This document shows positions 5,317-49,625 of a stretch of 64,000 nucleotides of DNA, in pieces. The stretch's first letter is position 1. Every line of letters starts with the position of its first letter. Source of the stretch: Minisyncoccota bacterium (GTDB lineage: Bacteria > Patescibacteriota > Minisyncoccia > Phycocordibacterales > XYD1-FULL-46-19). The stretch covers positions 64,623-128,622 of the forward strand of contig JBAZMZ010000001.1 in NCBI GenBank assembly GCA_041649495.1. The letters are read 5' to 3'. The notes under the pieces were generated by a model. It saw nothing but the letters and a program-made list of their open reading frames with translations, was not told the DNA's origin and did no database searches. The position numbers were made by a program, and so were the translations under genes.

Positions 5317-5397
5317 ATCGTAGAATTTACAAAAACAAGAAACTGTGATATTATAGAAATATCGCAGTTTCTTTGTTTATTAGTTAAAAATAATAAT

Positions 5398-5799
5398 ATG
5401 AAAAAATATCTTCTTTCCGTGATCCTGTTGACACTGGTTTTCTCACCAGCCTTGACTTATGGTGCGACCAATAATAGTGCCTTGATTGCTCAATTGAGGG
5501 CTCGGGTTGCTGACTTGCAAAGACAATTGGTTTTGCTCCAAAATCAATCAACCATTAATTGCCCCCTCGATAAAGATTTGACTCTGGGTGATGGTCACGG
5601 CAATGGTTTGGGCGCGAATGTTGTCTTGCTTCAAAATTGGCTTCGGGCAAGCGGTTATCTTAATATCCCGAAACCGACTGGCTATTTTGGCCCCCTGACA
5701 AGGTCAGCGCTGAAACATTGGCAAAGAGACAATAACTTAACCGCCACGGGCAAAATTAGCGCGGGCGAACGGTTGGCTTTATGCGGTCAGGTTAATTAA
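5398..5799 (+). CDS. Secreted small protein with C-terminal peptidoglycan-binding-like domain
   Basis: Signal peptide, coiled-coil segment, and LLQNWL...YFGPLTRSALKHWQ PG_binding_1-like motif. Confidence 0.5.
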   Translation: MKKYLLSVILLTLVFSPALTYGATNNSALIAQLRARVADLQRQLVLLQNQSTINCPLDKDLTLGDGHGNGLGANVVLLQNWLRASGYLNIPKPTGYFGPLTRSALKHWQRDNNLTATGKISAGERLALCGQVN

Positions 5800-6898: not shown

Positions 6899-9800
6899 AT
6901 GAAGAAAAAATATTTCTCGCATTATAAGAAGCCGTTGGCTTCGATGCCGGACCTGGTCGAAGTGCAGAACAAGTCTTACGAATGGTTAATTAAAGAAGGG
7001 CTCAAAGAACTTTTCAAAGAATACTCGCCGATTAAAGATTATTCAGACAAAAAATTCTCACTCGAATTTGTCGGCTTCCAGCTCGATGAACCGAAATTTG
7101 ATGAGTATTACGCGCGTGACAATAACTTGTCTTACGACGCGCCTTTGCGTGTGCGGGTGAAGTTGACTAATCGCTCGCTTAATTTAGAAAAAGAGCAAGA
7201 GATTTTCTTAGCGGATTTCCCCTTGATGACCAATCATGGGACTTTTGTGATTAACGGCATTGAGCGAGTAATTGTGCCTCAATTAGCGCGATCGTTTGGT
7301 GTTTTCTTCACGGCGAACGAATTAAAAGGGCGAAAATTCTTTGGCGCCAAAATTCTTCCGGCGCGGGGAGCTTGGATTGAATTTGAGACCGAAATTGATG
7401 ACGTGATTTATGTGCGAATTGATCGCAAGCGAAAATTCCCAGTGACTTCGTTGTTGCGCGTTTTTGCTGACCGTGACGGCCTAGAAGCGACGGATGAAAA
7501 ATTGATCCAAGCTTTTGCTGATCGCCAGGTTGATATTACTTATATCCAGAAGGCTTTAGCTAAAGATCATGCTAAAACGGCGCTCGACTCGTTTGTCGAA
7601 ATTTACAAGCGTTTGCGTGATAGTGACTTGGCTACGCCGGCGAACTCAAAGGAATTTGTCCGCGGGATGTTTGATCGCGAGAAATATGATCTCTCTTCAG
7701 TTGGGCGTTTGCGCTTCAATCAACGTTTTGGTTTGAAGGCGACCGAGGCCGAAAGAGAGAATCGAACACTCACTTTCGATGATATTGTTATGATTGTCTC
7801 TAATATCATCACTCTCAATACGACTAAGAATGCTAAGGAGGATGATATCGACCACCTGGGTTTTCGTCGAGTACGTTGCGTCGGCGAAATGTTGCAAGCC
7901 AAACTCAAGGTGGGGATGATGCAAATGAGACGCAATATCCAAGATCGCATGTCGACGGTGGACGCGGAAACTTTGTTGCCAGTCCAAATTATCTCACCCC
8001 GGCCACTTCAGGCGCGATTGAAAGAATTTTTCTCAACAAACCAATTGTCCCAATTTATGAGCCAAGAAAATATCCTGGCCGAATTGGAACACTTGCGCAC
8101 CTTGTCGGCCTTAGGGCCAGGCGGTCTCACTCGCGAGCGAGCTGGCTTGGAGGTGCGTGACGTGCACTCTTCGCATTATGGTAAAGTCTGTCCTATCCAT
8201 ACCCCCGAAGGTCCGAATATTGGTTTGATTTTGCACTTATCTTCCTACGCTCGCGTTAATGAATTTGGAATTATTGAGGCACCATATCGCAAAGTGGAGA
8301 AAGGCAAAATTACCGACGAAGTCGTCTTTTTGAATGCTTTCGAAGAAGAGCGTCACGTGGTGGCTCACGCTAGTGTGGCTTACGACGAGAATGGGAAATT
8401 GCTCGAGGAGTTGGTTGAAGCGCGCAAGAATGCTAACCCCGGTTTAGTTAAGCGTGAGGAGGTAGAATATATTGACGTGGCGCCGAATCAAGCTTACTCC
8501 ATTGCGACCTCGATGATTCCGTTTTTGGAACATGATGATGCGAATCGCGCCTTGATGGGTTCGAACATGCAGAAGCAGGCGGTACCTTGTATTTGCCCTG
8601 AAGCGGCCTTGGTCGCGACTGGGGCTGAAGATCGGGCGGCGCATGATTCGGGCCGATTAGTTTTGGCTCAAAATCCCGGTACGGTTATTAAAGCTGATGG
8701 CCAACAGATTGTGGTCAAGAAGGAGGACGGCCTGCCCGGCCAGGGCAAGGGTGACACTTACGCTCTGGCCAATTTCAAAATGACGAACGATTACACTTGC
8801 TTTCATCATCGGCCGATTGTTAATGTGGGTGATGTGGTAAAGAAGGGTGATTTATTGGCTGACTCTTCGTCAACGGTTAATGGTCAATTAGCCTTGGGTC
8901 AAAATGTCTTTGTTGCTTTCATGCCGTGGGGTGGAGCAAATTATGAGGACGCCATTATTTTGTCGGAACGCTTGGTGAAGAATAGTAAATTCACCTCAGT
9001 CTTTATTGAAGAATTTGAGACGAATGTGCGCGATACCAAACTCGGGCCCGAAATTACGACTCACGATATCCCGAATGTTGGCGAAGCGAAATTAAAAAAT
9101 CTGGACGAAGACGGCATTGTTCGTTTGGGGGCTGAAGTTGAACAAAATGATATTTTAGTTGGCAAAATTACACCGAAGGGGGAGACCGAATTAACGCCAG
9201 AGGAACGCTTGCTTCGCGCCATTTTTGGCGACAAAGCGCGCGACGTGAAAGATAGCTCGCTCCGAATGCCTCACGGTCGCAAGGGTCGGGTGATTGGGGT
9301 CAAAGTTTTCTCGCGCGAGCAGGGCGACAAATTGGAATCGGGGATTATTAAGAAAGTTAAAATCCAAGTGGCTCAATTGCGTAATGTTCAAGCGGGCGAT
9401 AAATTGGCTGGCCGGCACGGTAACAAGGGGGTTATTTCCAAAATTTTACCCGAAGAGGATATGCCTTATATGGCTGATGGCACGCCAGTGGACGTAATCC
9501 TAACGCCACTCGGTGTTCCGTCTCGTATGAACTTAGGTCAGATTTTCGAAATGCACTTAGGTTTGGCGGCCAACACGCTGGGCTATCAAGCGATTACGCC
9601 AGTTTTCGCGGGGGTGACTGAAGAAGAAATTAAGACCGAATTGAAGTCGGCTGGCTTCTCGACTGATGGCAAGGTTAATTTGCTTGACGGACAAACTGGT
9701 GAGGCCTTCGGTCAACCGGTAGCGATTGGTTATATGTATATGCTCAAATTGGCGCACATGGTGGAAGACAAAATTCACATGCGCTCGATTGGCCCTTACT

Positions 9801-26859: not shown

Positions 26860-27294
26860 ATGTTTAGCGATCGTTTTGATGTGACCTTGGGCGCATTTAA
26901 TCAAGAGTATTTTGATGAGTTGCCGAATACCGATCAGATTGACGTGCCCACTTTTAAGAACGAGGATTTTTATCATACGGTCTATGTTGATGGCTGGCCG
27001 ATTGGGGTGGCGGGGGTGGTGCCGTCTCGAGCTCTGCCGGATGCTGGTTTTATGCAAATTGTGTTGGCGCCCGATTGGCGGGGGAAGGGCTTGATTGAGC
27101 CGATTTATGATAAATTGGCCGAATGGCATAATCTCCATACTCTATATGCCACGATTAAGATTGATAACAAAGTGTCGCAATTGGCCCACCAGAAAATCGG
27201 CTTTCGCTTGTTGTCAGAAGACAAAATTGCTGATTTGCGGGAGCGCCACCTGCTTGAACCTGATGAGATCCGGATGGTTAAGGAGGTGGTTTAA
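26860..27294 (+). CDS. GNAT-family N-acetyltransferase
   Basis: WRGKGL acetyl-CoA-binding motif (Q/RxxGxG/A). Confidence 0.55.
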   Translation: MFSDRFDVTLGAFNQEYFDELPNTDQIDVPTFKNEDFYHTVYVDGWPIGVAGVVPSRALPDAGFMQIVLAPDWRGKGLIEPIYDKLAEWHNLHTLYATIKIDNKVSQLAHQKIGFRLLSEDKIADLRERHLLEPDEIRMVKEVV

Positions 27295-27296
27295 TT

Positions 27297-27494
27297 TGGT
27301 GCACCTTGCAGGGTTCGAACCTGCGACCTTACGAATGTCTGCCCCGTTAAATATTAACTTGGTTTTGTGGACGTTACAGGATTCGAACCTGTGACCTTAC
27401 GAATGTGAATCGTACGCTCTAACCAACTGAGCTAAACGTCCAATTATTTAACGGGGTGAAAATCGTACGCTCTAACCAACTGAGCTAAAGGTGC
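27297..27494 (-). tRNA. Interrupted tRNA-Val(GAC) gene: 5' exon 27461-27494 and 3' exon 27297-27339 (encodes CCA), with a 121-nt intervening sequence containing a complete tRNA-Val(CAC)
   Basis: The two halves reconstitute a canonical 77-nt tRNA: GCACCTT/AAGGTGC acceptor, D-arm, TACGA/TCGTA anticodon stem, loop TT|GACAT, GCAGG-TTCGAAC-CCTGC T-arm. The insert is flanked by a perfect 12-bp inverted repeat CCCCGTTAAATA/TATTTAACGGGG. Confidence 0.55.
27368..27441 (-). tRNA. tRNA-Val(CAC), 74 nt, no encoded CCA
   Basis: GGACGTT-TA-GCTC-AGTTGGTTA-GAGC-G-TACGA-TTCACAT-TCGTA-AGGTC-ACAGG-TTCGAAT-CCTGT-AACGTCC-A cloverleaf. Confidence 0.8.
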
Positions 27495-27578
27495 GGGAAT
27501 AAGGAATGTGGCGTCACAGTGTTCCCTGCGACATCCGACAAAAATATAGTCGCCCCCTTCTGGGACTCCTTATTTTTG

Positions 27579-27649
27579 TGGACCTAGCGAGAATCGGACT
27601 CGCGCCTCTACAATGCGAATGTAGCGTCGTACCACTAGACTATAGGCCC
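27579..27649 (-). tRNA. tRNA-Ala(CGC) with G3:U70; atypical T-loop TCCGATT
   Basis: Acceptor GGGCCTA/TAGGTCC with a G-U pair at position 3; anticodon stem CTACA/TGTAG with loop TTCGCAT; T-stem GCGAG/CTCGC. Confidence 0.6.
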
Positions 27650-27667
27650 AAAAGAGACCTCTCTAAT

Positions 27668-28690
27668 TTACCTTATACTGGTGTAGATGTCGAGGAGGGA
27701 AACTAGGAGTCTAACGGTGAGGGGACCAAGGATGAAGCCGATGGGACCAAAGAGGCTGAGGCCCCCCAAAACTGATAGAAGGATGAGGAGAGGGTGAAGG
27801 CCGATACCTTTACCGACGAATTTGGGACCCAGCAGATTATCGATTAAACTGACGGCTAAGATACCCCAAGCCAAGAGGCCGATGGCGCTAATGACTTGGC
27901 CGGTGAGATAAAGGTAGATGATGGCTGGGACGATAACAATGGCGGTACCGACGCTTGGGACGAGCGCGCCAACGGCGGCCAGAGTGCCCCAGATAATTGG
28001 ATTGGGCACCCCAAAAATTAAGAAGCCAATTGATGACGAAAGGCCCTGCAAAATGGCAATGAGCAAACTGCCCTTAATGACCAAGTTAACGGCTTGGGTA
28101 ATTTTTTTGATAATTATCTCGTCATCATTTTTGGTTAGAGGGCTAAGGCTAATGATTTTTTGTTTAAGTTGTTCGCCGTCTTTAAGTAGAAAAAAGAAGG
28201 CGATGAGGAAGACAAATAAATTGGCGATGATCTTGGCGAGGTTAGAGAAAACCAGACCCAAATTTTGGACGAAGAAACTTAAGATATTTTGAACGTATTG
28301 ATTAAGGTCAAAAGATAGATTATCAAAGATGGGGGAGATAGCGCTTAATCGTTGCCCAAGACCAGGCCAAAATTCGGTCAGTGATTGCTGGTTAAAATTA
28401 GTGGTAAGCGAAAAATAGAGACCTTGGGCTTCTTGAAAAATCTGGCTGACTAGAAAAGTGAGGGGGATTAAAATAAAAGTAATCAAAATCAAGATTGTTA
28501 AAAAAGAGGCCAGCCAGGTTTGTTGGCGAACGCGTTTAAGGAGTTGTCGATAAAGGGGTTGAAAGACGATGGCAAAAACGCTGGCTAAAATTAGCGAATA
28601 CAAAAATGGTTTCAAGACAAAAAAGGAAAGGACGAGAGATAAGCTCAAAAGGATTAATAAAAAATATAAACGAGGTTTTTTGCTAGTCAT
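27668..28690 (-). CDS. AI-2E family transporter (UPF0118/PerM-like membrane protein)
   Basis: Eight TM segments and the C-terminal GLHPLLILLSVLGG..G.IGFILGP signature. Confidence 0.7.
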   Translation of the reverse strand: MTSKKPRLYFLLILLSLSLVLSFFVLKPFLYSLILASVFAIVFQPLYRQLLKRVRQQTWLASFLTILILITFILIPLTFLVSQIFQEAQGLYFSLTTNFNQQSLTEFWPGLGQRLSAISPIFDNLSFDLNQYVQNILSFFVQNLGLVFSNLAKIIANLFVFLIAFFFLLKDGEQLKQKIISLSPLTKNDDEIIIKKITQAVNLVIKGSLLIAILQGLSSSIGFLIFGVPNPIIWGTLAAVGALVPSVGTAIVIVPAIIYLYLTGQVISAIGLLAWGILAVSLIDNLLGPKFVGKGIGLHPLLILLSVLGGLSLFGPIGFILGPLTVRLLVSLLDIYTSIR

Positions 28691-29469: not shown

Positions 29470-29880
29470 ATGAAAAAGAAATCAAAATATGAGCCAGGTG
29501 ATTACCAACTTTTAGTTAAACGATCAAGCGCGGGTTTGGGTTTATTTGCTGGCGAAGAGATCCCCAAGGGGGTTTGTTTGATCGAGTATAAGGGTCGTCA
29601 AATTTCGGAGAAAGAAGAATATACCAGTCGAAGTAAATATCTTTTTGAGGTCAACAAAAAGAAAACGATTGACGGTCAGGCTCGGTCTAATACCGCGCGC
29701 TACATTAACCATTCTTGTCGACCTAATGCTGAAATTGAGATTAAAAAAGAGCGAGTTTGGGTGATGTCTAAAAGGAAGATTAAGGCGGGCGAAGAGATTT
29801 GCTATGATTACGGTAAGGAGTATTGGGATGAACATATTAAGCCGATCGGTTGCCGATGCTTAAAATGCCAAGCTCGCTAA
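29470..29880 (+). CDS. Minimal SET-domain protein lysine methyltransferase (136 aa) with post-SET Cys cluster
   Basis: ARYINHSCRPNAE (NHxCxPN), GEEICYDYG (ELxxDY-type), and C-terminal CRCLKC. Confidence 0.8.
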   Translation: MKKKSKYEPGDYQLLVKRSSAGLGLFAGEEIPKGVCLIEYKGRQISEKEEYTSRSKYLFEVNKKKTIDGQARSNTARYINHSCRPNAEIEIKKERVWVMSKRKIKAGEEICYDYGKEYWDEHIKPIGCRCLKCQAR

Positions 29881-29943
29881 TTGATTCACCAAACAAAATG
29901 GCCCCAAGTTTGGGGTCATTTTGTTTTAGCAAGTAAATTAAAA

Positions 29944-30198
29944 CTAGGAGAGATGTTTCGAGACGAGTTTTGTCATCTCAAACATGTTGACGACGGCTTT
30001 GCCATCGAAAACTTTTTTGAGGTTCTCGTCAGCATTGATGTTGCGTTTATTGCTCGGGTCTTGGAGATTTTTCTCCTTAATGTAAACCCAGAGCTTCTTG
30101 ACGACCTCGGAGCGGGGCATTGGTCCTTTGCCGACGACGACAGCGAGGTCTTCGCTGATGGTCATGGGCTTCATAAACGCGGAATTCGGATTGGCCAT
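29944..30198 (-). CDS. SWIB/MDM2-domain protein (84 aa)
   Basis: VVGKGPMPRSEVVKKLWVYIKEKNLQDPSNKRNINADENLKKVF...MFEMTKLVSKHL matches the SWIB consensus nearly position by position. Confidence 0.8.
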   Translation of the reverse strand: MANPNSAFMKPMTISEDLAVVVGKGPMPRSEVVKKLWVYIKEKNLQDPSNKRNINADENLKKVFDGKAVVNMFEMTKLVSKHLS

Positions 30199-30260
30199 GA
30201 TAATATTGTTAATTGGTAATATGAGGCTATTATAGCAGATTCGACGGGAATAAACAAAGG

Positions 30261-35743: not shown

Positions 35744-36649
35744 TTAATTTGCCCTCTGGTCAGCCTGCATTTCTTTTTTCATCTCTTCTAACTTAACTCT
35801 TAGGGCTTCGGGGTCAGCCACTTTTTCTTGGGAGTTAATAATTCCCTTGAAATCGCTTAACTCTTCCTTCTCCTCATAATTTTTTAGTAAGTCAATTCCT
35901 TCAGACGAACCGATGTTATTACATTCAAATTCGAAGTTGCCAGAAAAACTCACGCCCGGATTAGGCGAATTATCAGGACAAGTACCCTGGAAAGAAAAAG
36001 AATCGGGGGTTACAATAGCTCCGTTTTTTAGTGCTCCACCAGCTAGACTAAAATAGGGACACAAAACTTTGGCATCACCCGTTTCTTCATCAACTCGCTC
36101 TTGAGCTAACCCCATGACGGCGCCAATACCTTTGGTGGTGATCATCACCCAATCAGTTCTTTTTCTGTCTGGGGCGGGGTAAAGAATATTGGCATTATAG
36201 TCTAGTCTAACTGGTGCCATATTCTTTTTATAATACTCGGTGATATTACCGCTCTCTTTTGTTTCTAAACTTCCCTCGCCAATCAAGTTGCTGAGGTTAC
36301 CTTGACTGTGATATTTATAATCAATAGTTCGGCCAAGGATATAAAGTTTTTGGTTTTCTTTGTCGAAGACACTAATATCTTCTGAACGATAATCAACCTG
36401 GCCCGACTCACTTCCAACAATAGAATTCTTGTAAGTCCCGGTGATTTTCTCCTTGCCTTGGCAAAAAGTATAACGCTCTTTATCTTGCAACTCTTCGAAA
36501 TAAAGTTTTTCAATCTTTTGTTGGTCTTCGGTTGAAGTATCCGGCGAAGGCTCGAGGTTAAAAGGATTATTTTGCGACAGATAAACTCCACCCGCAATCG
36601 CTCCGGTCGTGGCAATCGCCCCTAAACCCAAAATAAGTTTCTTTTCCAT
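35744..36649 (-). CDS. Secreted hypothetical protein (signal peptide, about 300 aa)
   Basis: MEKKLILGLGAIATTGAIAGG signal sequence; no recognisable domain. Confidence 0.5.
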   Translation of the reverse strand: MEKKLILGLGAIATTGAIAGGVYLSQNNPFNLEPSPDTSTEDQQKIEKLYFEELQDKERYTFCQGKEKITGTYKNSIVGSESGQVDYRSEDISVFDKENQKLYILGRTIDYKYHSQGNLSNLIGEGSLETKESGNITEYYKKNMAPVRLDYNANILYPAPDRKRTDWVMITTKGIGAVMGLAQERVDEETGDAKVLCPYFSLAGGALKNGAIVTPDSFSFQGTCPDNSPNPGVSFSGNFEFECNNIGSSEGIDLLKNYEEKEELSDFKGIINSQEKVADPEALRVKLEEMKKEMQADQRAN

Positions 36650-36651
36650 AA

Positions 36652-37158
36652 TTATAAACCGCAGACCTCGGTCATTGCTGGGCAAGATTGAGCATTTAAC
36701 ATACAGCCGACCTTCTCACTCTTCCACCCAGAGCACTCAGACATACAAGACATTAAGCCTTCGTTATATAAGTTTTGGTCAGCGTTAGGAACAAGAGAGA
36801 GACACTTCATCGTATAATTAGAACAAGCTCCTTCGCAATCAGTCTTAGCATCTATCTTTTCTGGAGTCTTAACTTCGGGGATAAGTAACTCGGCAATTAA
36901 TTCTGGCTTCTGGGTTAATTCTTGACAAGAGTTGGCTTGGTTGAGATGATCTTTTGTTTCTTGACTTAAGTTATCACAGTTCTGCTCACAAACTTCTTTA
37001 TTAATAAGCGAGGGGCAAGTTTCAACCGCTTTTTGGCAAGTGAGGACACAGTCTTTGCTAACCTGTTTGCCGCCACCACCACCTTTGCCCCAATAGGCCA
37101 GAGCGCCAAGGCCAATCACTCCCACGATCACTATCCCGATAATTAGTTCTTTTTTCAT
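36652..37158 (-). CDS. Cysteine-rich secreted protein (19 Cys in 168 aa)
   Basis: N-terminal TM/signal segment and regularly spaced Cys pairs. Confidence 0.5.
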   Translation of the reverse strand: MKKELIIGIVIVGVIGLGALAYWGKGGGGGKQVSKDCVLTCQKAVETCPSLINKEVCEQNCDNLSQETKDHLNQANSCQELTQKPELIAELLIPEVKTPEKIDAKTDCEGACSNYTMKCLSLVPNADQNLYNEGLMSCMSECSGWKSEKVGCMLNAQSCPAMTEVCGL

Positions 37159-37345
37159 ATTCGTTGATTATTTACTTCTCGGTTTCTTTTTCGCTGCGAG
37201 CATTGCCTTCTTGACCGCCAGACGCTTTTTGGTTTTGGGTGAGCGTGAGGTTTTCATTTTGCCGACCCCGGTGTGTCTTTTCCCCATAATTTTTATTTTT
37301 AAAATTAGGACTACTAATAATTAATAATTATTACACTCGCTTAAT

Positions 37346-37552
37346 TTATTTAAGATATTTGCCGGCGATACTAAGAGCGAAAGAGGGGAGAATGATGAAA
37401 ACACAAGCCATCAGAAGCTTGGCGAAAACTTGATTTATTGGCTCGCTGTCATTCGGCCCGCCAAACAAGATTAAACCGAGGCCGACCAGACCAAAGGCGA
37501 TTGAAGCGAAGATAAAAATCCGGGTAGCTATTTTTTGCATAAAGTTAAGCAT
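37346..37552 (-). CDS. Small two-TM membrane protein (68 aa)
   Basis: Two hydrophobic helices; ORF only. Confidence 0.3.
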   Translation of the reverse strand: MLNFMQKIATRIFIFASIAFGLVGLGLILFGGPNDSEPINQVFAKLLMACVFIILPSFALSIAGKYLK

Positions 37553-37612
37553 AACATAAAAATTGCTAACATTCCACCGTCAAGGTGTCATCTGCCGATT
37601 ATTTATCGTTTC

Positions 37613-38662
37613 CTATCTCCCATAGTCCTTATGGCCAAAGCCGCTTAAGTCCTTTTTGGCTTTTTTAATAAATTTCCCAAAGTCACGTTCCTTTTCTCTT
37701 TTTTCAATATTTGTCAACTCATAAAATTCAGCTTCTTTTTTTAATTTAATATAATTAAAATATTTTTCTTTATCCAAGGTGCCAGATTTTAAGGTAGACA
37801 ATACCGCGCACCCGGATTCTTGGGTATGGGTACAATCCTTATATTTACATCCGTCCGCCAAACTAGCTATTTCACCGAAAAAATCATTGACCCCTTCAAT
37901 GTTATCAGTCATCCCTACCTCTCTCATTCCCGGGTTATCTATCACGATACCTCCATTTTCAAGAAAATACATCTCCCTTTTGGTGGTGACATGTTTCCCT
38001 CTTCCCGAGTAAGTAGAAATATCTTCTGTTCTCAAAATATCTTTTCCAAGTAATTTATTAATCAGAGAAGATTTACCAACTCCTGATGACCCAAGAAAAC
38101 AATAGGTCTTGTCTTTTAAAATAAATTTTTTTAATTCGTCTAGACCCTCATTGGTTACTGTGCTAGCCAAGACGACATCAATCTTATTAAATCTATTTTT
38201 TATCTGAGACAAGACTAAATCTAATTTTTCTTTGGTAATTAAGTCAATCTTATTTAGAATAATTGCCACTTCGGCCTCACCGCCGGTAGCAATAGTAAAA
38301 TATCTTTCAAAACGATTTAGACTAAAGTCCCGGTCAACTGATTCAACTACAAAGGCAACATCAATATTTGTCGCAATAATTTGTGTTTCGTTTTTATTAT
38401 TGCTTTTTCTTTTTATAATCGTTTTTCTCGGCAATATTTTTTGAATGACGGCGTTTTCTTTGTCGGCCATCATAATTTCCACCCAGTCACCAACAGCAGG
38501 GTAATCTTCTCTTGAACCTGACTCGAACATTTGCTTGCCCGTAATTTTTGCCAAAAATTCACCGGCCGAAACTTTGACCTTATAAGCTCCTTTGTATTCA
38601 GCAATGACTCGCGCGACTATTGTTTCAGAATTTATTTTGTTCATACCTCGCCAATATACCAA
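37613..38662 (-). CDS. rsgA: Ribosome small-subunit-dependent GTPase A (RsgA/YjeQ)
   Basis: Circularly permuted GTPase motifs (NKIDL...GSSGVGKSSLINKL) and C-terminal zinc knuckle CKYKDCTHTQESGC. Confidence 0.85.
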   Translation of the reverse strand: MVYWRGMNKINSETIVARVIAEYKGAYKVKVSAGEFLAKITGKQMFESGSREDYPAVGDWVEIMMADKENAVIQKILPRKTIIKRKSNNKNETQIIATNIDVAFVVESVDRDFSLNRFERYFTIATGGEAEVAIILNKIDLITKEKLDLVLSQIKNRFNKIDVVLASTVTNEGLDELKKFILKDKTYCFLGSSGVGKSSLINKLLGKDILRTEDISTYSGRGKHVTTKREMYFLENGGIVIDNPGMREVGMTDNIEGVNDFFGEIASLADGCKYKDCTHTQESGCAVLSTLKSGTLDKEKYFNYIKLKKEAEFYELTNIEKREKERDFGKFIKKAKKDLSGFGHKDYGR

Positions 38663-38833
38663 AAATTCCCCAGCGGTTCTACGTCCTAACTAGGGTAGGC
38701 AAAAATACGTTGGATTACATTAACGAGTAATATGGGCTTAAGACTAATCGACAATAAGGCCACTTGTGCTTTTACTGGCTTACTGCTACAATAATCCTAA
38801 GTATTCCTAAAAAGCGGAATATAAAGAGCTAAA

Positions 38834-39451
38834 ATGCAATATTTAGACCTTAAGAAGCAATTAAAGGATTTTACCATTTTTTCAATCAAGGATATTGAAA
38901 AGGTTGATTTGTCGTTCCATAAGCAAAGATTAAGTGAATGGCAGAAAAAGAATTATGTCAAAAAGATTCGCCAAGGTTTTTATATTTTCTCCGATCTTGA
39001 AATAAATGAACCGGTGCTATTTATGATTGCCAATCGGATTAATGAACCCTCGTATATCTCATTGGAAATGGCCTTGTCACTTTATGGTCTTATTCCCGAA
39101 GCGGTCTATGGCTTGACTTCGGTCACCTCGCAAAAGACCAAGACTTTCAAGACTCCCGTCGGTGATTTCATTTATCGACATACTCGGCCTGAACTCTTAT
39201 TTGGTTATGAGCTTCGAGAATCTAATGGCCAGCATTATCAGATCGCTGAAATTGAAAAGGCCGTTCTCGATTACCTCTATTTCAACTCAGACCTTAAGGA
39301 CGAAGAGTCTTTTCGGGGTGTTCGGTTTAATGTTGACGAGTTTAAGGAAAGAGTAAATTTAGCCAAGTTTAATAAGTATCTTAGGGCTTTTAACAGCCAG
39401 GCCTTGGCTAAGCGAGCCAAGAAGTTTTTAACCTATATTGAACATGCTTAG
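38834..39451 (+). CDS. abiEi: AbiEi-family antitoxin / transcriptional regulator (type IV TA, abortive infection)
   Basis: About 200 aa; overlaps the downstream AbiEii gene by 14 bp; N-terminal wHTH-like region; matches AbiEi family architecture. Confidence 0.6.
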   Translation: MQYLDLKKQLKDFTIFSIKDIEKVDLSFHKQRLSEWQKKNYVKKIRQGFYIFSDLEINEPVLFMIANRINEPSYISLEMALSLYGLIPEAVYGLTSVTSQKTKTFKTPVGDFIYRHTRPELLFGYELRESNGQHYQIAEIEKAVLDYLYFNSDLKDEESFRGVRFNVDEFKERVNLAKFNKYLRAFNSQALAKRAKKFLTYIEHA

Positions 39452-40220
39452 TTTAAAAAATATCGAGCAGTATTATCCTGACAACGAGAAACCCTTTAAG
39501 CGCAATATCTTGAGAGAGTATTTACAATACAAAATTCTCGAGATCATTTTTAATTCTAAGTATGCTCAAGAGGTAATTTTTCTCGGCGGTACGGCTTTGC
39601 GAATTATTTATAATAATAGTCGATTCTCCGAAGACCTTGATTTTGATAATTTTACGTTAACCGAAGAACAATTTGCCGATTTGGCGGGTAAAATCAAGAA
39701 AGGACTTGAGTTGCAAGGTTACGAAGTCGAGATCAAGAATGTCTTTAAGGGCGCTTATTGCTCGTATATTCGGATGCCGAATGTCTTGTTTGACAATGAA
39801 GTATCTAATCTCAAAGAAGAAAAAATCATGATTCAAATTGATACCGTTCCCCATGCTTTTGATTACCAAAAAGACGCCAAGATTCTCAATAAATTTGATG
39901 TCTTTACCCAGATTTTTACCACTCCGATTGATATTCTTTTATCGCAAAAAATTTACGCCGCCCTTAATCGCTCGCGAGCCAAGGGGCGGGACTTTTTTGA
40001 TATTGTCTTTTTGATTCCCCAAACCAAGCCAAATTATGAATATCTCGAAAAAAAGCTTGGTATTAAGAATGGCCAAGAGTTAAAAAAAGCTTTGCTTGTT
40101 AAAACTGCGGGTTTTGATTTTGCTGACTTAGCCAAAGATGTTGAACCTTTTCTTATTAACGGCGAGGACAGCAAAAAAGTAAAAATGTTTCGGGAATATA
40201 TCACTTCAGTTGAATTTTAG
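39438..40220 (+). CDS. abiEii: AbiEii/AbiGii-family nucleotidyltransferase toxin (DUF1814)
   Basis: REYLQYKILEII..., FLGGTALRIIY, and DLDFD motifs typical of DUF1814 nucleotidyltransferases. Confidence 0.7.
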   Translation: MNMLSLKNIEQYYPDNEKPFKRNILREYLQYKILEIIFNSKYAQEVIFLGGTALRIIYNNSRFSEDLDFDNFTLTEEQFADLAGKIKKGLELQGYEVEIKNVFKGAYCSYIRMPNVLFDNEVSNLKEEKIMIQIDTVPHAFDYQKDAKILNKFDVFTQIFTTPIDILLSQKIYAALNRSRAKGRDFFDIVFLIPQTKPNYEYLEKKLGIKNGQELKKALLVKTAGFDFADLAKDVEPFLINGEDSKKVKMFREYITSVEF

Positions 40221-40223
40221 GTT

Positions 40224-41090
40224 ATGAACAAGAAGTTACAGCGACTACTGACAATCTTAATGACTGGCTCACGAGCTGAATTTAAGCTAGCTAAGAAAGA
40301 GATTAGTGTTTTATGGCATCGTGACACCGAAGGCTTTAAAACCGGCGCGCTGGTCGCCCTCGAATTTCTGCCTAAATTTGATCAAATTAAGACTGACTTA
40401 AATAAAGAGGCCTTTGTGGCCGGGTTAAGCTTTTTCTTTTTAGCCTTAGACAATGACCATTTTGATACCTTAAAAAATTTCACTTTGCGCGTTATTCAAC
40501 ACCCTAACGGTCACATTCGCGAAGCCATACGTCATACCTCGTCTTGGCTATTTTGTTCGCTGACTTCTCGTGCTTGCCCTTTTGTTTATCCACCGGGCCA
40601 AGAATTAACGACTAAACAAAAAACCGAGCAGACCAAGGCACACGAACAATACCTAAATTATGTGAAAGAAATTGAAGCGTTGATTGATAGATATAGTCTT
40701 GATGATGAAAGGGTAAAATATATTGAAGACATGAAGCCCTCAATCAATAAGAGCTTACAACAACTTTGGAGCGAATTGGCAGACAGCCGTGCCTGTCAAG
40801 AAATTATTGCCGAAACAAGGCCAATTCCTTCCGAAGTTTTTTTCAAGCGAAAAGAGTTGGAGCAAGAAATAACGAAACTATTAAAAGAGACAAGGAGTGA
40901 CTTTGATTTGTCTGATGTCAAAAATGCTATCTTTCACGAAGAAGACACCGACGATATGATGGAAATCGTGGCGATGTTTGATCGAGGAGGCGATACTTCC
41001 GAATTAAGTAATATTCTAGAATTAGCCACTGACGCTTGGAATTATTTTCCCCATCAAATGCTCGGCGGGCTATCACCAGCCGAAATGTGA
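40224..41090 (+). CDS. Hypothetical 288-aa protein, apparently co-transcribed with abiEi/abiEii
   Basis: Starts 4 bp after the abiEii stop; no recognisable domain. Confidence 0.5.
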   Translation: MNKKLQRLLTILMTGSRAEFKLAKKEISVLWHRDTEGFKTGALVALEFLPKFDQIKTDLNKEAFVAGLSFFFLALDNDHFDTLKNFTLRVIQHPNGHIREAIRHTSSWLFCSLTSRACPFVYPPGQELTTKQKTEQTKAHEQYLNYVKEIEALIDRYSLDDERVKYIEDMKPSINKSLQQLWSELADSRACQEIIAETRPIPSEVFFKRKELEQEITKLLKETRSDFDLSDVKNAIFHEEDTDDMMEIVAMFDRGGDTSELSNILELATDAWNYFPHQMLGGLSPAEM

Positions 41091-41157
41091 GGTTAACAAG
41101 TTCGGACCGATTTCACCTTTGAATTACAACACGATTTTCGCTAATTCAAGTACTTTG

Positions 41158-41229
41158 CTCCGTGGGTAGGGATCGAACCTACGACCAATCGCTTAACAGG
41201 CGACCGCTCTACCGCTGAGCTACCACGGA
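41158..41229 (-). tRNA. tRNA-Asn(GUU)
   Basis: TCCGTGG/CCACGGA acceptor with U1-A72, anticodon loop CTGTTAA, T-loop TTCGATC. Confidence 0.8.
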
Positions 41230-41314
41230 ATCTTTAATTTTAAAGAACTCTCAAATTTTACCAAAAATCTGGGGAAATGCAAATGGTGGGGGAATATGCT
41301 AAAATTTTATTCTT

Positions 41315-49067: not shown

Positions 49068-49625
49068 ATGGCTGAAGAGGAGAAAAAAGAGGCAAAAAGA
49101 CTGTTCATTGCTTTGCCGGTGGAGGGGTCTTTGGGTAACGACGCACTAGCTTGGCAGGCTGATCATGTGGGTTGGCCGGTTAATTGGCTGGCCGGTGACC
49201 ATCTCCATATTACGGTGGTCTCACCTTGGTTTGAGACGGATCTTGATAAGGTAATTAATAAATTAGACGAATTTGCTCAAACGGCGCGGAATACTTTTTT
49301 TATTGATTTTAATAAAGTGGTTTTTGGCCCTAATCGTCAAGCCCCTCGTTTGATTTGGGCTGAGGGCAATCCACCCCATTCTCTCCTCAAACTCAAGGAT
49401 GATTTGGAAGTGGCGCTTAATCGACCTGATCCGCGTTTTTATCGTCTCCATTTAACTCTGGCCCGTTTTAAGGCTGAGGATTTTGGTCCGAGTTTGCCCA
49501 ACTTATTTGACCGGGTTGATTGGGGTGGTGAGATCAAAAATTTCACTTTGCTCGAATCAGTGCTCAAACCAGATAGTGCTCCCGAATATCTCAAAATCAA
49601 AGACTTTTCTTTTGCTAATACTTAG
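49068..49625 (+). CDS. 2'-5' RNA ligase / 2H phosphoesterase family (LigT/ThpR-like)
   Basis: Two HxT/Sx motifs (HLHITVV and HLTLARF). Confidence 0.7.
   Translation: MAEEEKKEAKRLFIALPVEGSLGNDALAWQADHVGWPVNWLAGDHLHITVVSPWFETDLDKVINKLDEFAQTARNTFFIDFNKVVFGPNRQAPRLIWAEGNPPHSLLKLKDDLEVALNRPDPRFYRLHLTLARFKAEDFGPSLPNLFDRVDWGGEIKNFTLLESVLKPDSAPEYLKIKDFSFANT

Follow-up and report, generated by a model that had tools for sequence, protein, structure and literature searches.

A complete tRNA-Val(CAC) gene was found to lie inside the anticodon loop of another, interrupted tRNA-Val gene on the minus strand (27297-27494) of a 64-kb chromosome segment of a Minisyncoccota bacterium (contig JBAZMZ010000001.1, positions 64,623 to 128,622; below, the window). 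This arrangement, called here the nest, is probably the product of a non-autonomous insertion element that disrupted the anticodon loop of a tRNA-Val(CAC) gene and supplies the replacement, the outer halves of the target being left as by-products. The inserted block is one of a family of small elements without coding capacity of their own, which occupy the anticodon regions of tRNA genes across Patescibacteria.

The 5' part of the outer gene (27461-27494), which reads GCACCTT TA GCTC AGTTGGTTA GAGC G TACGA TT from 27494 to 27461, corresponds to positions 1-33 of the former tRNA and contains the acceptor strand GCACCTT, the D arm, the anticodon-stem strand TACGA and T32 T33. It is followed by a block of 123 nt (TTCA...CAGA, 27338-27460), whose edges were set by alignment with the empty allele and with the termini of related blocks, and by the outer 3' part (27297-27337) with C36 A37 T38, the stem strand TCGTA, the variable loop, the T arm, AAGGTGC, the discriminator A and CCA. 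Within the block, the 5' terminus TTCA (27457-27460) precedes the 5' arm of a bracketing helix (CCCCGTTAAATA, 27445-27456), the inner or cargo tRNA-Val(CAC) (27368-27441), the 3' arm of the helix (TATTTAACGGGG, 27342-27353) and the 3' terminus CAGA (27338-27341). The inner tRNA is complete and canonical (ARAGORN; 75.1 bits in Rfam as tRNA), has no encoded CCA and is presumed to be a functional gene; it is flanked by spacers of 19 nt (27460-27442) and 28 nt (27367-27340). All elements listed in the original prediction, which had been made from the sequence alone, including a CCA in the outer 3' part and none in the inner tRNA, were thus recovered at their minus-strand coordinates, and a repeat search confirmed the 12-nt inverted repeat (27445-27456 / 27342-27353, 100 % complementary). 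The same search gave two direct repeats (97 and 86 % identity), formed by the inner and outer tRNAs, whose halves are homologous. RNAfold folded the 204-nt stretch into two nested cloverleaves linked by the bracket helix, with a minimum free energy (MFE) of -66 kcal/mol (z = -5.07; 0 of 200 shuffles equally stable). The nest is not an assembly artefact, since a 390-nt region was 100 % identical in contigs of two other metagenome assemblies, one from the Joint Genome Institute (JGI) and one from the European Nucleotide Archive (ENA). The organism occurs in the samples JGI 3300014204 and 3300035208 and ENA ERZ27247350.

Relatives of the locus were reached by following the flanking gene of an AI-2E transporter, which led to the loci L005, L007, L250, L253, L254 and L255 (the L numbers denote collected loci throughout). 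An uninterrupted tRNA-Val(CAC) gene with the anticodon loop TTCACAT adjoins the AI-2E gene in L255 (88 % identity of the AI-2E protein) and in L254 (92 %). The L255 gene, GCACCTTTAGCTCAGTTGGTTAGAGCGTACGATTCACATTCGTAAGGTCGCAGGTTCGAACCCTGCAAGGTGCA, has the pattern GCACCTT...TACGA TTCACAT TCGTA...AAGGTGCA and equals the outer 5' part of the window, matching the first 34 nt of the L255 tRNA, then CA, then the outer 3' part from CAT through the discriminator. No further difference from the outer halves was found in L255, and L254 showed one substitution. Because the outer halves match the uninterrupted gene of a relative base for base, the nest is far beyond chance. The same Val gene, with three substitutions including a compensatory pair, was present in L007 (72 %), where the order AI-2E, Ala, Val is the same. 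A stand-alone tRNA was found in L253 (89 %), its visible 53 nt being identical to the inner tRNA of the window, and a stand-alone tRNA related to the inner one in L005 (74 %); L250 (86 %) contained tRNA-Ala and no tRNA-Val. Both types of tRNA-Val(CAC) circulate as ordinary genes in the clade.

The nest was absent from all six relatives examined. It is missing there and identical in two other assemblies of the same species, and is hence recent; judged from these genomes, it appears to be confined to the species of the window. The original prediction had named the outer gene tRNA-Val(GAC), but the uninterrupted allele of L255 and L254 reads TTCACAT, which identifies the outer gene as a former tRNA-Val(CAC). 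An uninterrupted allele together with the missing nest in the relatives points to insertion, and the fallback idea of the prediction, a gene destroyed by a tRNA-bearing micro-element, is the one favoured by the comparative data. As a separate observation, the tRNA cluster on the AI-2E side is inverted in some close relatives (L005, L253, L254 and L255, versus the window and L007); the inverted clusters carry tRNA-Val(CAC) of either the GCACCTT or the GGACGTT type, with unrelated spacers. The tRNA-Val genes at the AI-2E locus thus appear to have been swapped or rearranged over a short time scale.

Blocks of the same kind were found in other genomes. Metagenome contigs were scanned for two D-arm motifs 15-45 nt apart, closer than two separate tRNAs allow, which gave at least 119 loci; all counts for the family given here are among the matches listed. 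A strict nest finder, demanding in the outer gene 7/7 acceptor, 4/4 D-stem and 5/5 T-stem pairs and the T-loop motif, returned at least 28-30 nests for Val, Ile, Met, Pro and Gly. Many loci follow a common plan of outer 5' part, arm, complete inner tRNA, complementary arm and outer 3' part. The true nests from a scan of genome contigs came from metagenome-assembled genomes (MAGs) labelled as Parcubacteria, Saccharibacteria, Saccharimonadales, Woykebacteria, Uhrbacteria and the Patescibacteria group, plus two vaguely labelled ones; the AI-2E protein flanking the nest of the window has the NCBI name Candidatus Paceibacterota bacterium, i.e. it too belongs to Patescibacteria, the candidate phyla radiation (CPR). 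In that scan of genome contigs (TTCACCCCG, then 10 to 40 nt, then a D arm) about 10 of the 120 matches listed were true nests; the remaining ~110 were a tRNA-Pro 3' end (TTCACCCCGACCA) followed by another tRNA and were discarded. Viral contigs gave 8 matches and no nest. Phage origin was rejected, as blastn of the region against 50,697 phage records returned generic tRNA matches only and the context is an ordinary Patescibacteria chromosome. The loci had been selected for co-orientation, and among them one probably spurious anti-oriented nest was seen.

The subfamily of the window comprises 12 distinct blocks with the 5' end TTCA-CCC(C)G and the 3' end C(G)GGG-CA(A/G)G. TTCA is invariant in 12/12; the 3' terminus has the consensus CAAG (eight blocks), with CAGG, CATG, TGAG and CAGA (the window) found once each. 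In the alignment, the 7 nt between helix and anticodon stem in the window, CAGACAT, stand opposite CAAGCAT in L204 and opposite CAAGTAA in the Met genes of L189 and L218, which makes the 'GA' of the supposed GAC a part of the block. A clean 121-nt insertion at 33/34 had been predicted; since this 'GA' aligns with the block termini CAAG, CAGG and CATG in other genomes, 123 nt replaced C34-A35 instead. The apparent GAC would then be a coincidence of the junction, made of the last two bases of the block and C36. In the prediction the joined halves formed a perfect Val(GAC) cloverleaf: ARAGORN does call such a tRNA, so the cloverleaf stands, while the GAC is a junction product and the allele is CAC. 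For the native sequence, ARAGORN in intron mode gave no outer tRNA.

The two-base replacement and the choice of cargo recur across the subfamily. Removal of the block leaves a 5-nt anticodon loop. When exactly CA was added back, a canonical outer tRNA was called by ARAGORN in 7 of 13 loci, and L098 needed no addition. In 8/8 cases the restored outer anticodon was that of the cargo (CAC/CAC in four, TAC/TAC in three, CAT/CAT in one), the replaced 'CA' being common to Val(CAC), Val(TAC) and Met genes. The cargo tRNAs were canonical in 13/13 loci; the outer genes of 3/13 could not be called even after repair, and L113 and L222 gave no sensible call. Since each block carries a tRNA with the anticodon of the gene that it interrupts, the disruption is compensated by the cargo.

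One genome can hold several nests, as the L129 contig (Ga0315289_10000020) carries three, with different arms: Ile-TAT (~5375-5440, locus positions), Val-GAC (5563-5724) and Gly-GCC (7706-7862). The Gly nest turned up free of the D-arm search bias. A second nest family, with the termini CCTGCC(T/C)GCC...GGCAGG, was noticed in L110/L127, L026, L039, L124 and L100; the outer halves of L124 and L100 are decayed. As a hairpin on its own, the CCTGCCTGCC/GGCAGGCAGG palindrome also occurs within tRNA genes of L222 and L120, in the D loop or the T loop, and beside a tRNA gene in L033. Hairpin-forming insertions of ~30-80 nt were seen in the T loops of the outer 3' halves of L121, L120, L019 and L079, and it seems that insertions build up in all loops of the tRNA genes of Patescibacteria.

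The behaviour of the block as a discrete unit is best seen in L142 (a Parcubacteria MAG) and L193 (a Saccharibacteria MAG), whose blocks are identical at 118 of 119 positions. Their outer halves are only 83 and 72 % identical and the flanks ~55 %, and the tract of identity has its 3' limit exactly at the block terminus and its 5' limit within 5 nt of the other terminus. This pair argues for a recent transfer of the block as a discrete unit, and recombination through the outer halves is disfavoured because no co-conversion is seen. Layering and decay were observed as well. In L115 (7769-8018, minus strand) there are three layers, a tRNA-Val(GAC) in a tRNA-like shell in another shell; neither shell has an anticodon loop, the whole 17-nt anticodon arm being replaced by a helix of 9-10 bp, and apart from this replacement the outermost shell does not differ from the functional tRNA inside the L030 nest. 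In L246 the current cargo lies in a middle layer whose D arm has decayed, and the outermost layer is reduced to a 3' remnant that resembles the end of the L113 block. Remnants consisting of a 5' half and an arm only (L028, L017, L172) fit a resolution by recombination between repeated halves. In L023/L117, L119 and L047, repeated units of a 5' or 3' half plus arm share their arm sequence and seem to have arisen through unequal crossing-over or through a block inserting itself repeatedly into its own cargo.

The bracket helix shows covariation. Over the 12 blocks, 143 of 144 core helix cells were paired, 9 of 16 helix pairs showed changes on both sides, none of 500 shuffles reached the observed values and slid registers collapsed. 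A 2x2 C.A/A.C internal loop at the foot of the helix is kept in 11/12 blocks. The cargo cloverleaf had the same ensemble probability (ViennaRNA), 0.10, whether the cargo was folded by itself or within the native nest of 198 nt; the value for the nest fell to a median of 0.0009 when the 3' arm was shuffled and to 0.00018 when both arms were deleted. Cargo and outer halves agree in the D arm, in the anticodon stem and in the bases next to the anticodon, because of which the cargo would mispair with the outer halves if the helix were absent. According to these simulations, selection for folding of the cargo would be enough to explain the covariation and splicing would not be required.

In the proposed course of events the block would insert as a unit into anticodon regions, and the survivors would be only those insertions whose cargo replaces the broken gene, in small genomes with usually single-copy tRNA genes. 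The whole nest would be transcribed together, probably with the upstream tRNA-Ala, and the bracket helix would close off the cargo, allowing its cloverleaf to form instead of wrong pairs with the outer halves, to which it is homologous. The cargo would then be freed by RNase P and a nuclease that processes the 3' end, CCA would be added enzymatically, and the outer halves would be discarded unjoined, the shell decaying or being lost by recombination. The outer gene is accordingly seen as a probable young pseudogene, with halves that would have lost their function and with mobility of the block as the likely cause.

Several observations weigh against this interpretation. Neither a transposase, an integrase nor a homing endonuclease was found among the 49 open reading frames (ORFs) of the window, where the exact block terminus occurs only once. 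There is no target-site duplication: the empty-site comparison shows CA replaced, likewise in 7 other loci, and we know of no transposition chemistry that a two-base replacement would match. (A 'CA' target-site duplication, IS200/IS605-type insertion 3' of a tetranucleotide, serine or tyrosine recombinase cores and integron attC were considered and dropped, as they do not yield X-TTCA[...]CARG-Y with loss of CA.) Given that the cargo is identical to the stand-alone tRNA of L253, the 89 % relative, the block of the window may have been formed or reloaded locally rather than have arrived from afar. The stems of the outer gene are intact, its CCA is encoded and the junction permits a canonical Val(GAC) loop. 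In L110/L127, L026 and L039 of the second family, block removal restores a perfect 7-nt loop in an intron-like manner (at 37/38 in L110, at 36/37 in L039), and excision would restore an exact 7-nt loop in the Ile(TAT) and Ile(GAT) nests L097, L071 and L075; a splicing pathway may serve some nests of these two groups. Finally, the nest scans demanded one D-arm type and co-orientation and are biased to that extent.

Splicing had been the first idea of the original prediction, namely a precursor giving two Val isoacceptors. The inner tRNA-Val(CAC) would be freed by RNase P/RNase Z; once the arms were removed, RtcB or some other ligase would join the outer halves into tRNA-Val(GAC), so that ...ACGAUU would be joined to GACAUUCGU... 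in the mature molecule. Besides the perfect Val(GAC) cloverleaf obtained by joining TT to GACAT, the intact outer stems with encoded CCA and the exact loops available in other nests (L110, L039 and those for Ile(TAT)), the covarying helix would bring the exon ends together, and an ORF resembling LigT/2H phosphoesterases lies 22 kb away (49068-49625, plus strand, 185 aa; weak, consistent matches to the LigT-like phosphoesterase / 2'-5' RNA ligase superfamily, E 1e-7 and 5e-7). What first drew attention to the LigT / 2'-5' RNA ligase family was its joining of tRNA halves in vitro; as the family is widespread in bacteria, the ORF is only a lead. Against functional splicing, the uninterrupted allele is CAC and not GAC, 'GA' aligns with the conserved CARG terminus, and the equivalent join in sister blocks yields nonsense anticodons (AGC, AGT) on Val or Met bodies. 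In those blocks the flanks alone leave a 5-nt loop and no single excision restores the gene with a proper anticodon loop, so splicing into two isoacceptors is unlikely as a property of the family; in the window likewise no single excision restored TTCACAT, the tRNA of the uninterrupted gene, the predicted join giving TTGACAT instead. A bulge-helix-bulge (BHB) motif, in which two 3-nt bulges separated by 4 bp carry both splice sites, is not in the predicted fold, in which a 3x3 internal loop, 2 bp and bulges of 1 and 2 nt precede the 12-bp helix (L098 has a continuous 15-bp helix with a single 3-nt bulge). Rfam cmscan of 27200-27700, at the gathering threshold and at E<=10, returned tRNA only and no group I core, ribozyme or intron family, and neither RtcB nor EndA was found among the ORFs of the window. 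Outer shells are decayed or lack an anticodon loop in L246, L218, L121, L030 and L115, and in a young nest intact stems need no selection. A functional nested intron is therefore considered very unlikely here, and it is just as improbable that Patescibacteria possess a protein-dependent, non-group-I pathway which removes hairpin-bracketed tRNA-bearing blocks and ligates the outer halves, with two tRNAs per precursor.

The outer halves could also be non-decoding and yet retained as a tRNA-like scaffold that stabilises the cargo precursor or directs its processing, the acceptor and T arms being recognised by RNase P, RNase Z or the CCA-adding enzyme. This would agree with the fully intact outer acceptor, D and T arms of the strict set of nests, with shells in which the bracket helix exactly replaces the anticodon arm and the rest is kept (L030, L118, L115, and the Val and Gly nests of L129) and with a nested fold much more stable than shuffles. 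Such an exapted shell is nevertheless unlikely: intact shells can be simply young, as that of L115 is identical to a functional tRNA elsewhere and the nest of the window is species-specific, decayed shells are common, remnants of 5' halves alone exist (L028, L017, L172), and in the folding simulation the cargo needs the arms, not the shell, and folds equally well alone. Alternatively, two tRNA-Val(CAC) genes of this population, paralogous or allelic, might have recombined or undergone gene conversion such that one came to lie in the other, with the inverted repeat as a by-product. Both types do stand alone beside AI-2E in relatives (GCACCTT in L254 and L255, GGACGTT in L253), the cluster is inverted in some of them, inner and outer genes have the D arm, anticodon stem and bases around the anticodon in common, and unequal crossing-over clearly reshapes other nests (L023, L119). 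A purely local rearrangement is still quite improbable, because the arms and termini are homologous to blocks in distant Patescibacteria, Val(CAC), Val(TAC) and Met genes alike have 'CA' replaced, two genomes whose outer genes have diverged share a block at 99 % identity, and simple duplication or inversion does not produce a nest.

The nest lies in an ordinary chromosome segment that encodes SMC, RNase R, S16, TrmD, RpoB, RpoC, DnaG, RpoD, enolase and branched-chain amino-acid ABC transporters. Upstream of it, in the same orientation, is tRNA-Ala(CGC) (27578-27649, minus strand; ARAGORN, 62 bits in Rfam), preceded by a promoter-like site, TCGACA-17-TAAATT (27665-27693, minus strand), which was recognised in a consensus scan and probably marks the start of a transcript of Ala and nested Val; the GTAAATTAG motif was found again 5' of tRNA-Ala in L007 and L250. 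The 83-nt spacer between tRNA-Ala and the outer gene (27495-27577) contains a terminator-like hairpin with a T-run (27552-27566, minus strand). If this hairpin were functional, the nest would need a promoter of its own, and the consensus scan recognised none. The spacer was also considered as an older remnant of a tRNA 3' half and this was rejected, the local alignment score being reached by 18 of 500 shuffles and so not significant. At 29470-30219 there are genes for a SET-domain protein (29470-29880, plus strand) and a SWIB-domain protein (29944-30198, minus strand), eukaryote-like domains of chromatin type, which are kept beside the AI-2E gene in all relatives examined. The stretch 36000-41300, possibly a small island at a tRNA gene, is next to tRNA-Asn(GTT) (41157-41229); its GC content is lower (0.387 versus ~0.45), and it contains an AbiEii-type toxin gene (39438-40220) and several ORFs to which Pfam gave no match.

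If the proposed explanation is true, a gene-less unit of ~120 nt follows a new strategy of selfish elements: it breaks an essential, usually single-copy tRNA gene, becomes indispensable by carrying the replacement and can re-invade its own cargo, which gives Russian-doll tRNA genes. A secondary origin of split or disrupted tRNA genes would thereby be demonstrated, with a bearing on the debate whether archaeal split tRNAs are ancestral or derived, and tRNA fragments and missed genes in CPR annotations would be accounted for. The bracket helix would be a natural insulator that lets a structured RNA mature inside a homologous one, and the 'CA' replacement and the TTCA/CARG ends would be concrete handles for finding the responsible enzyme. 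Were splicing true instead, archaeal tRNA splicing would have its first counterpart in bacteria, the nest here yielding Val(CAC) and a junction-made Val(GAC).

No description of nested tRNA genes in bacteria was found in the searchable literature. By form, the closest system is that of the archaeal intron-containing, split and tri-split tRNA genes of Nanoarchaeum equitans, Caldivirga maquilingensis and others, which depend on BHB, EndA and RtcB (review, PMC4090602). In these genes the break likewise lies at a non-canonical site within the anticodon loop or close to it, and complementary sequences can hold the halves together. The nest differs in being in a bacterium, in having no BHB, in missing two loop bases, so that excision does not restore the gene, in the lack of EndA and RtcB in the window and in a gene that is disrupted rather than spliced. 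A further likeness is that the intervening RNA of archaeal disrupted tRNAs can carry another functional RNA, such as the C/D box RNA in the archaeal tRNA-Trp intron, while the cargo of the nest is a whole tRNA.

The anticodon loops of bacterial tRNA genes can be interrupted by group I introns, among them those at 35/36 in Patescibacteria, most of which have no homing endonuclease gene (Nakagawa et al. 2026, PMC13011429). The phylum and the anticodon-loop target are those of the nest, and these introns also escape standard tRNA finders; nested tRNAs are not mentioned in that paper. A group I core needs ~200 nt or more, whereas the block has 121-123 nt, of which 74 nt are tRNA, and although the 5' exon in the window ends in U33, the intervening sequence ends in A and not in G.

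Miniature transposable elements with inverted repeats (MITEs) and the doublets of repetitive extragenic palindromes that form hairpins (REPINs) resemble the block in being small and non-coding, in having terminal inverted repeats with conserved ends, in presence/absence polymorphism (empty in L254, L255 and L007) and in near-identical copies in different contexts (L142, L193). The block differs from them in its functional tRNA cargo, its tRNA anticodon target and its 2-nt replacement without target-site duplication; in the nest, moreover, the arm interiors covary rather than being conserved, and the 64-kb window contains no partner transposase. The logic of compensation is that of tRNA-targeting phages, integrative and conjugative elements (ICEs) and genomic islands, in which damage is made good by a carried tRNA sequence and partial copies (tRNA fragments) are left (PMC9897764). 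Those elements are kilobases long, encode an integrase and are bounded by attL/attR direct repeats of the tRNA 3' part, unlike a 123-nt block with an entire tRNA that is nested, not flanking, and has an inverted repeat. Next to the nest no integrase or attL/attR repeats were found; the neighbouring genes encode GNAT, an AI-2E transporter and ABC transporters. The eukaryotic Dada DNA transposons likewise use tRNA genes as a safe haven by inserting site-specifically; they target multicopy small-RNA genes including tRNA genes (PMC8869645). Dada elements are eukaryotic, autonomous or transposase-dependent, and rely on the multiplicity of the target with no replacement gene. The nest is thus like archaeal disrupted tRNAs in form, like MITEs and REPINs in size and ends, and like integrative elements in its logic of compensation, and it fails defining tests of each; what best describes it is a non-autonomous insertion element with an unusual cargo, target and junction.

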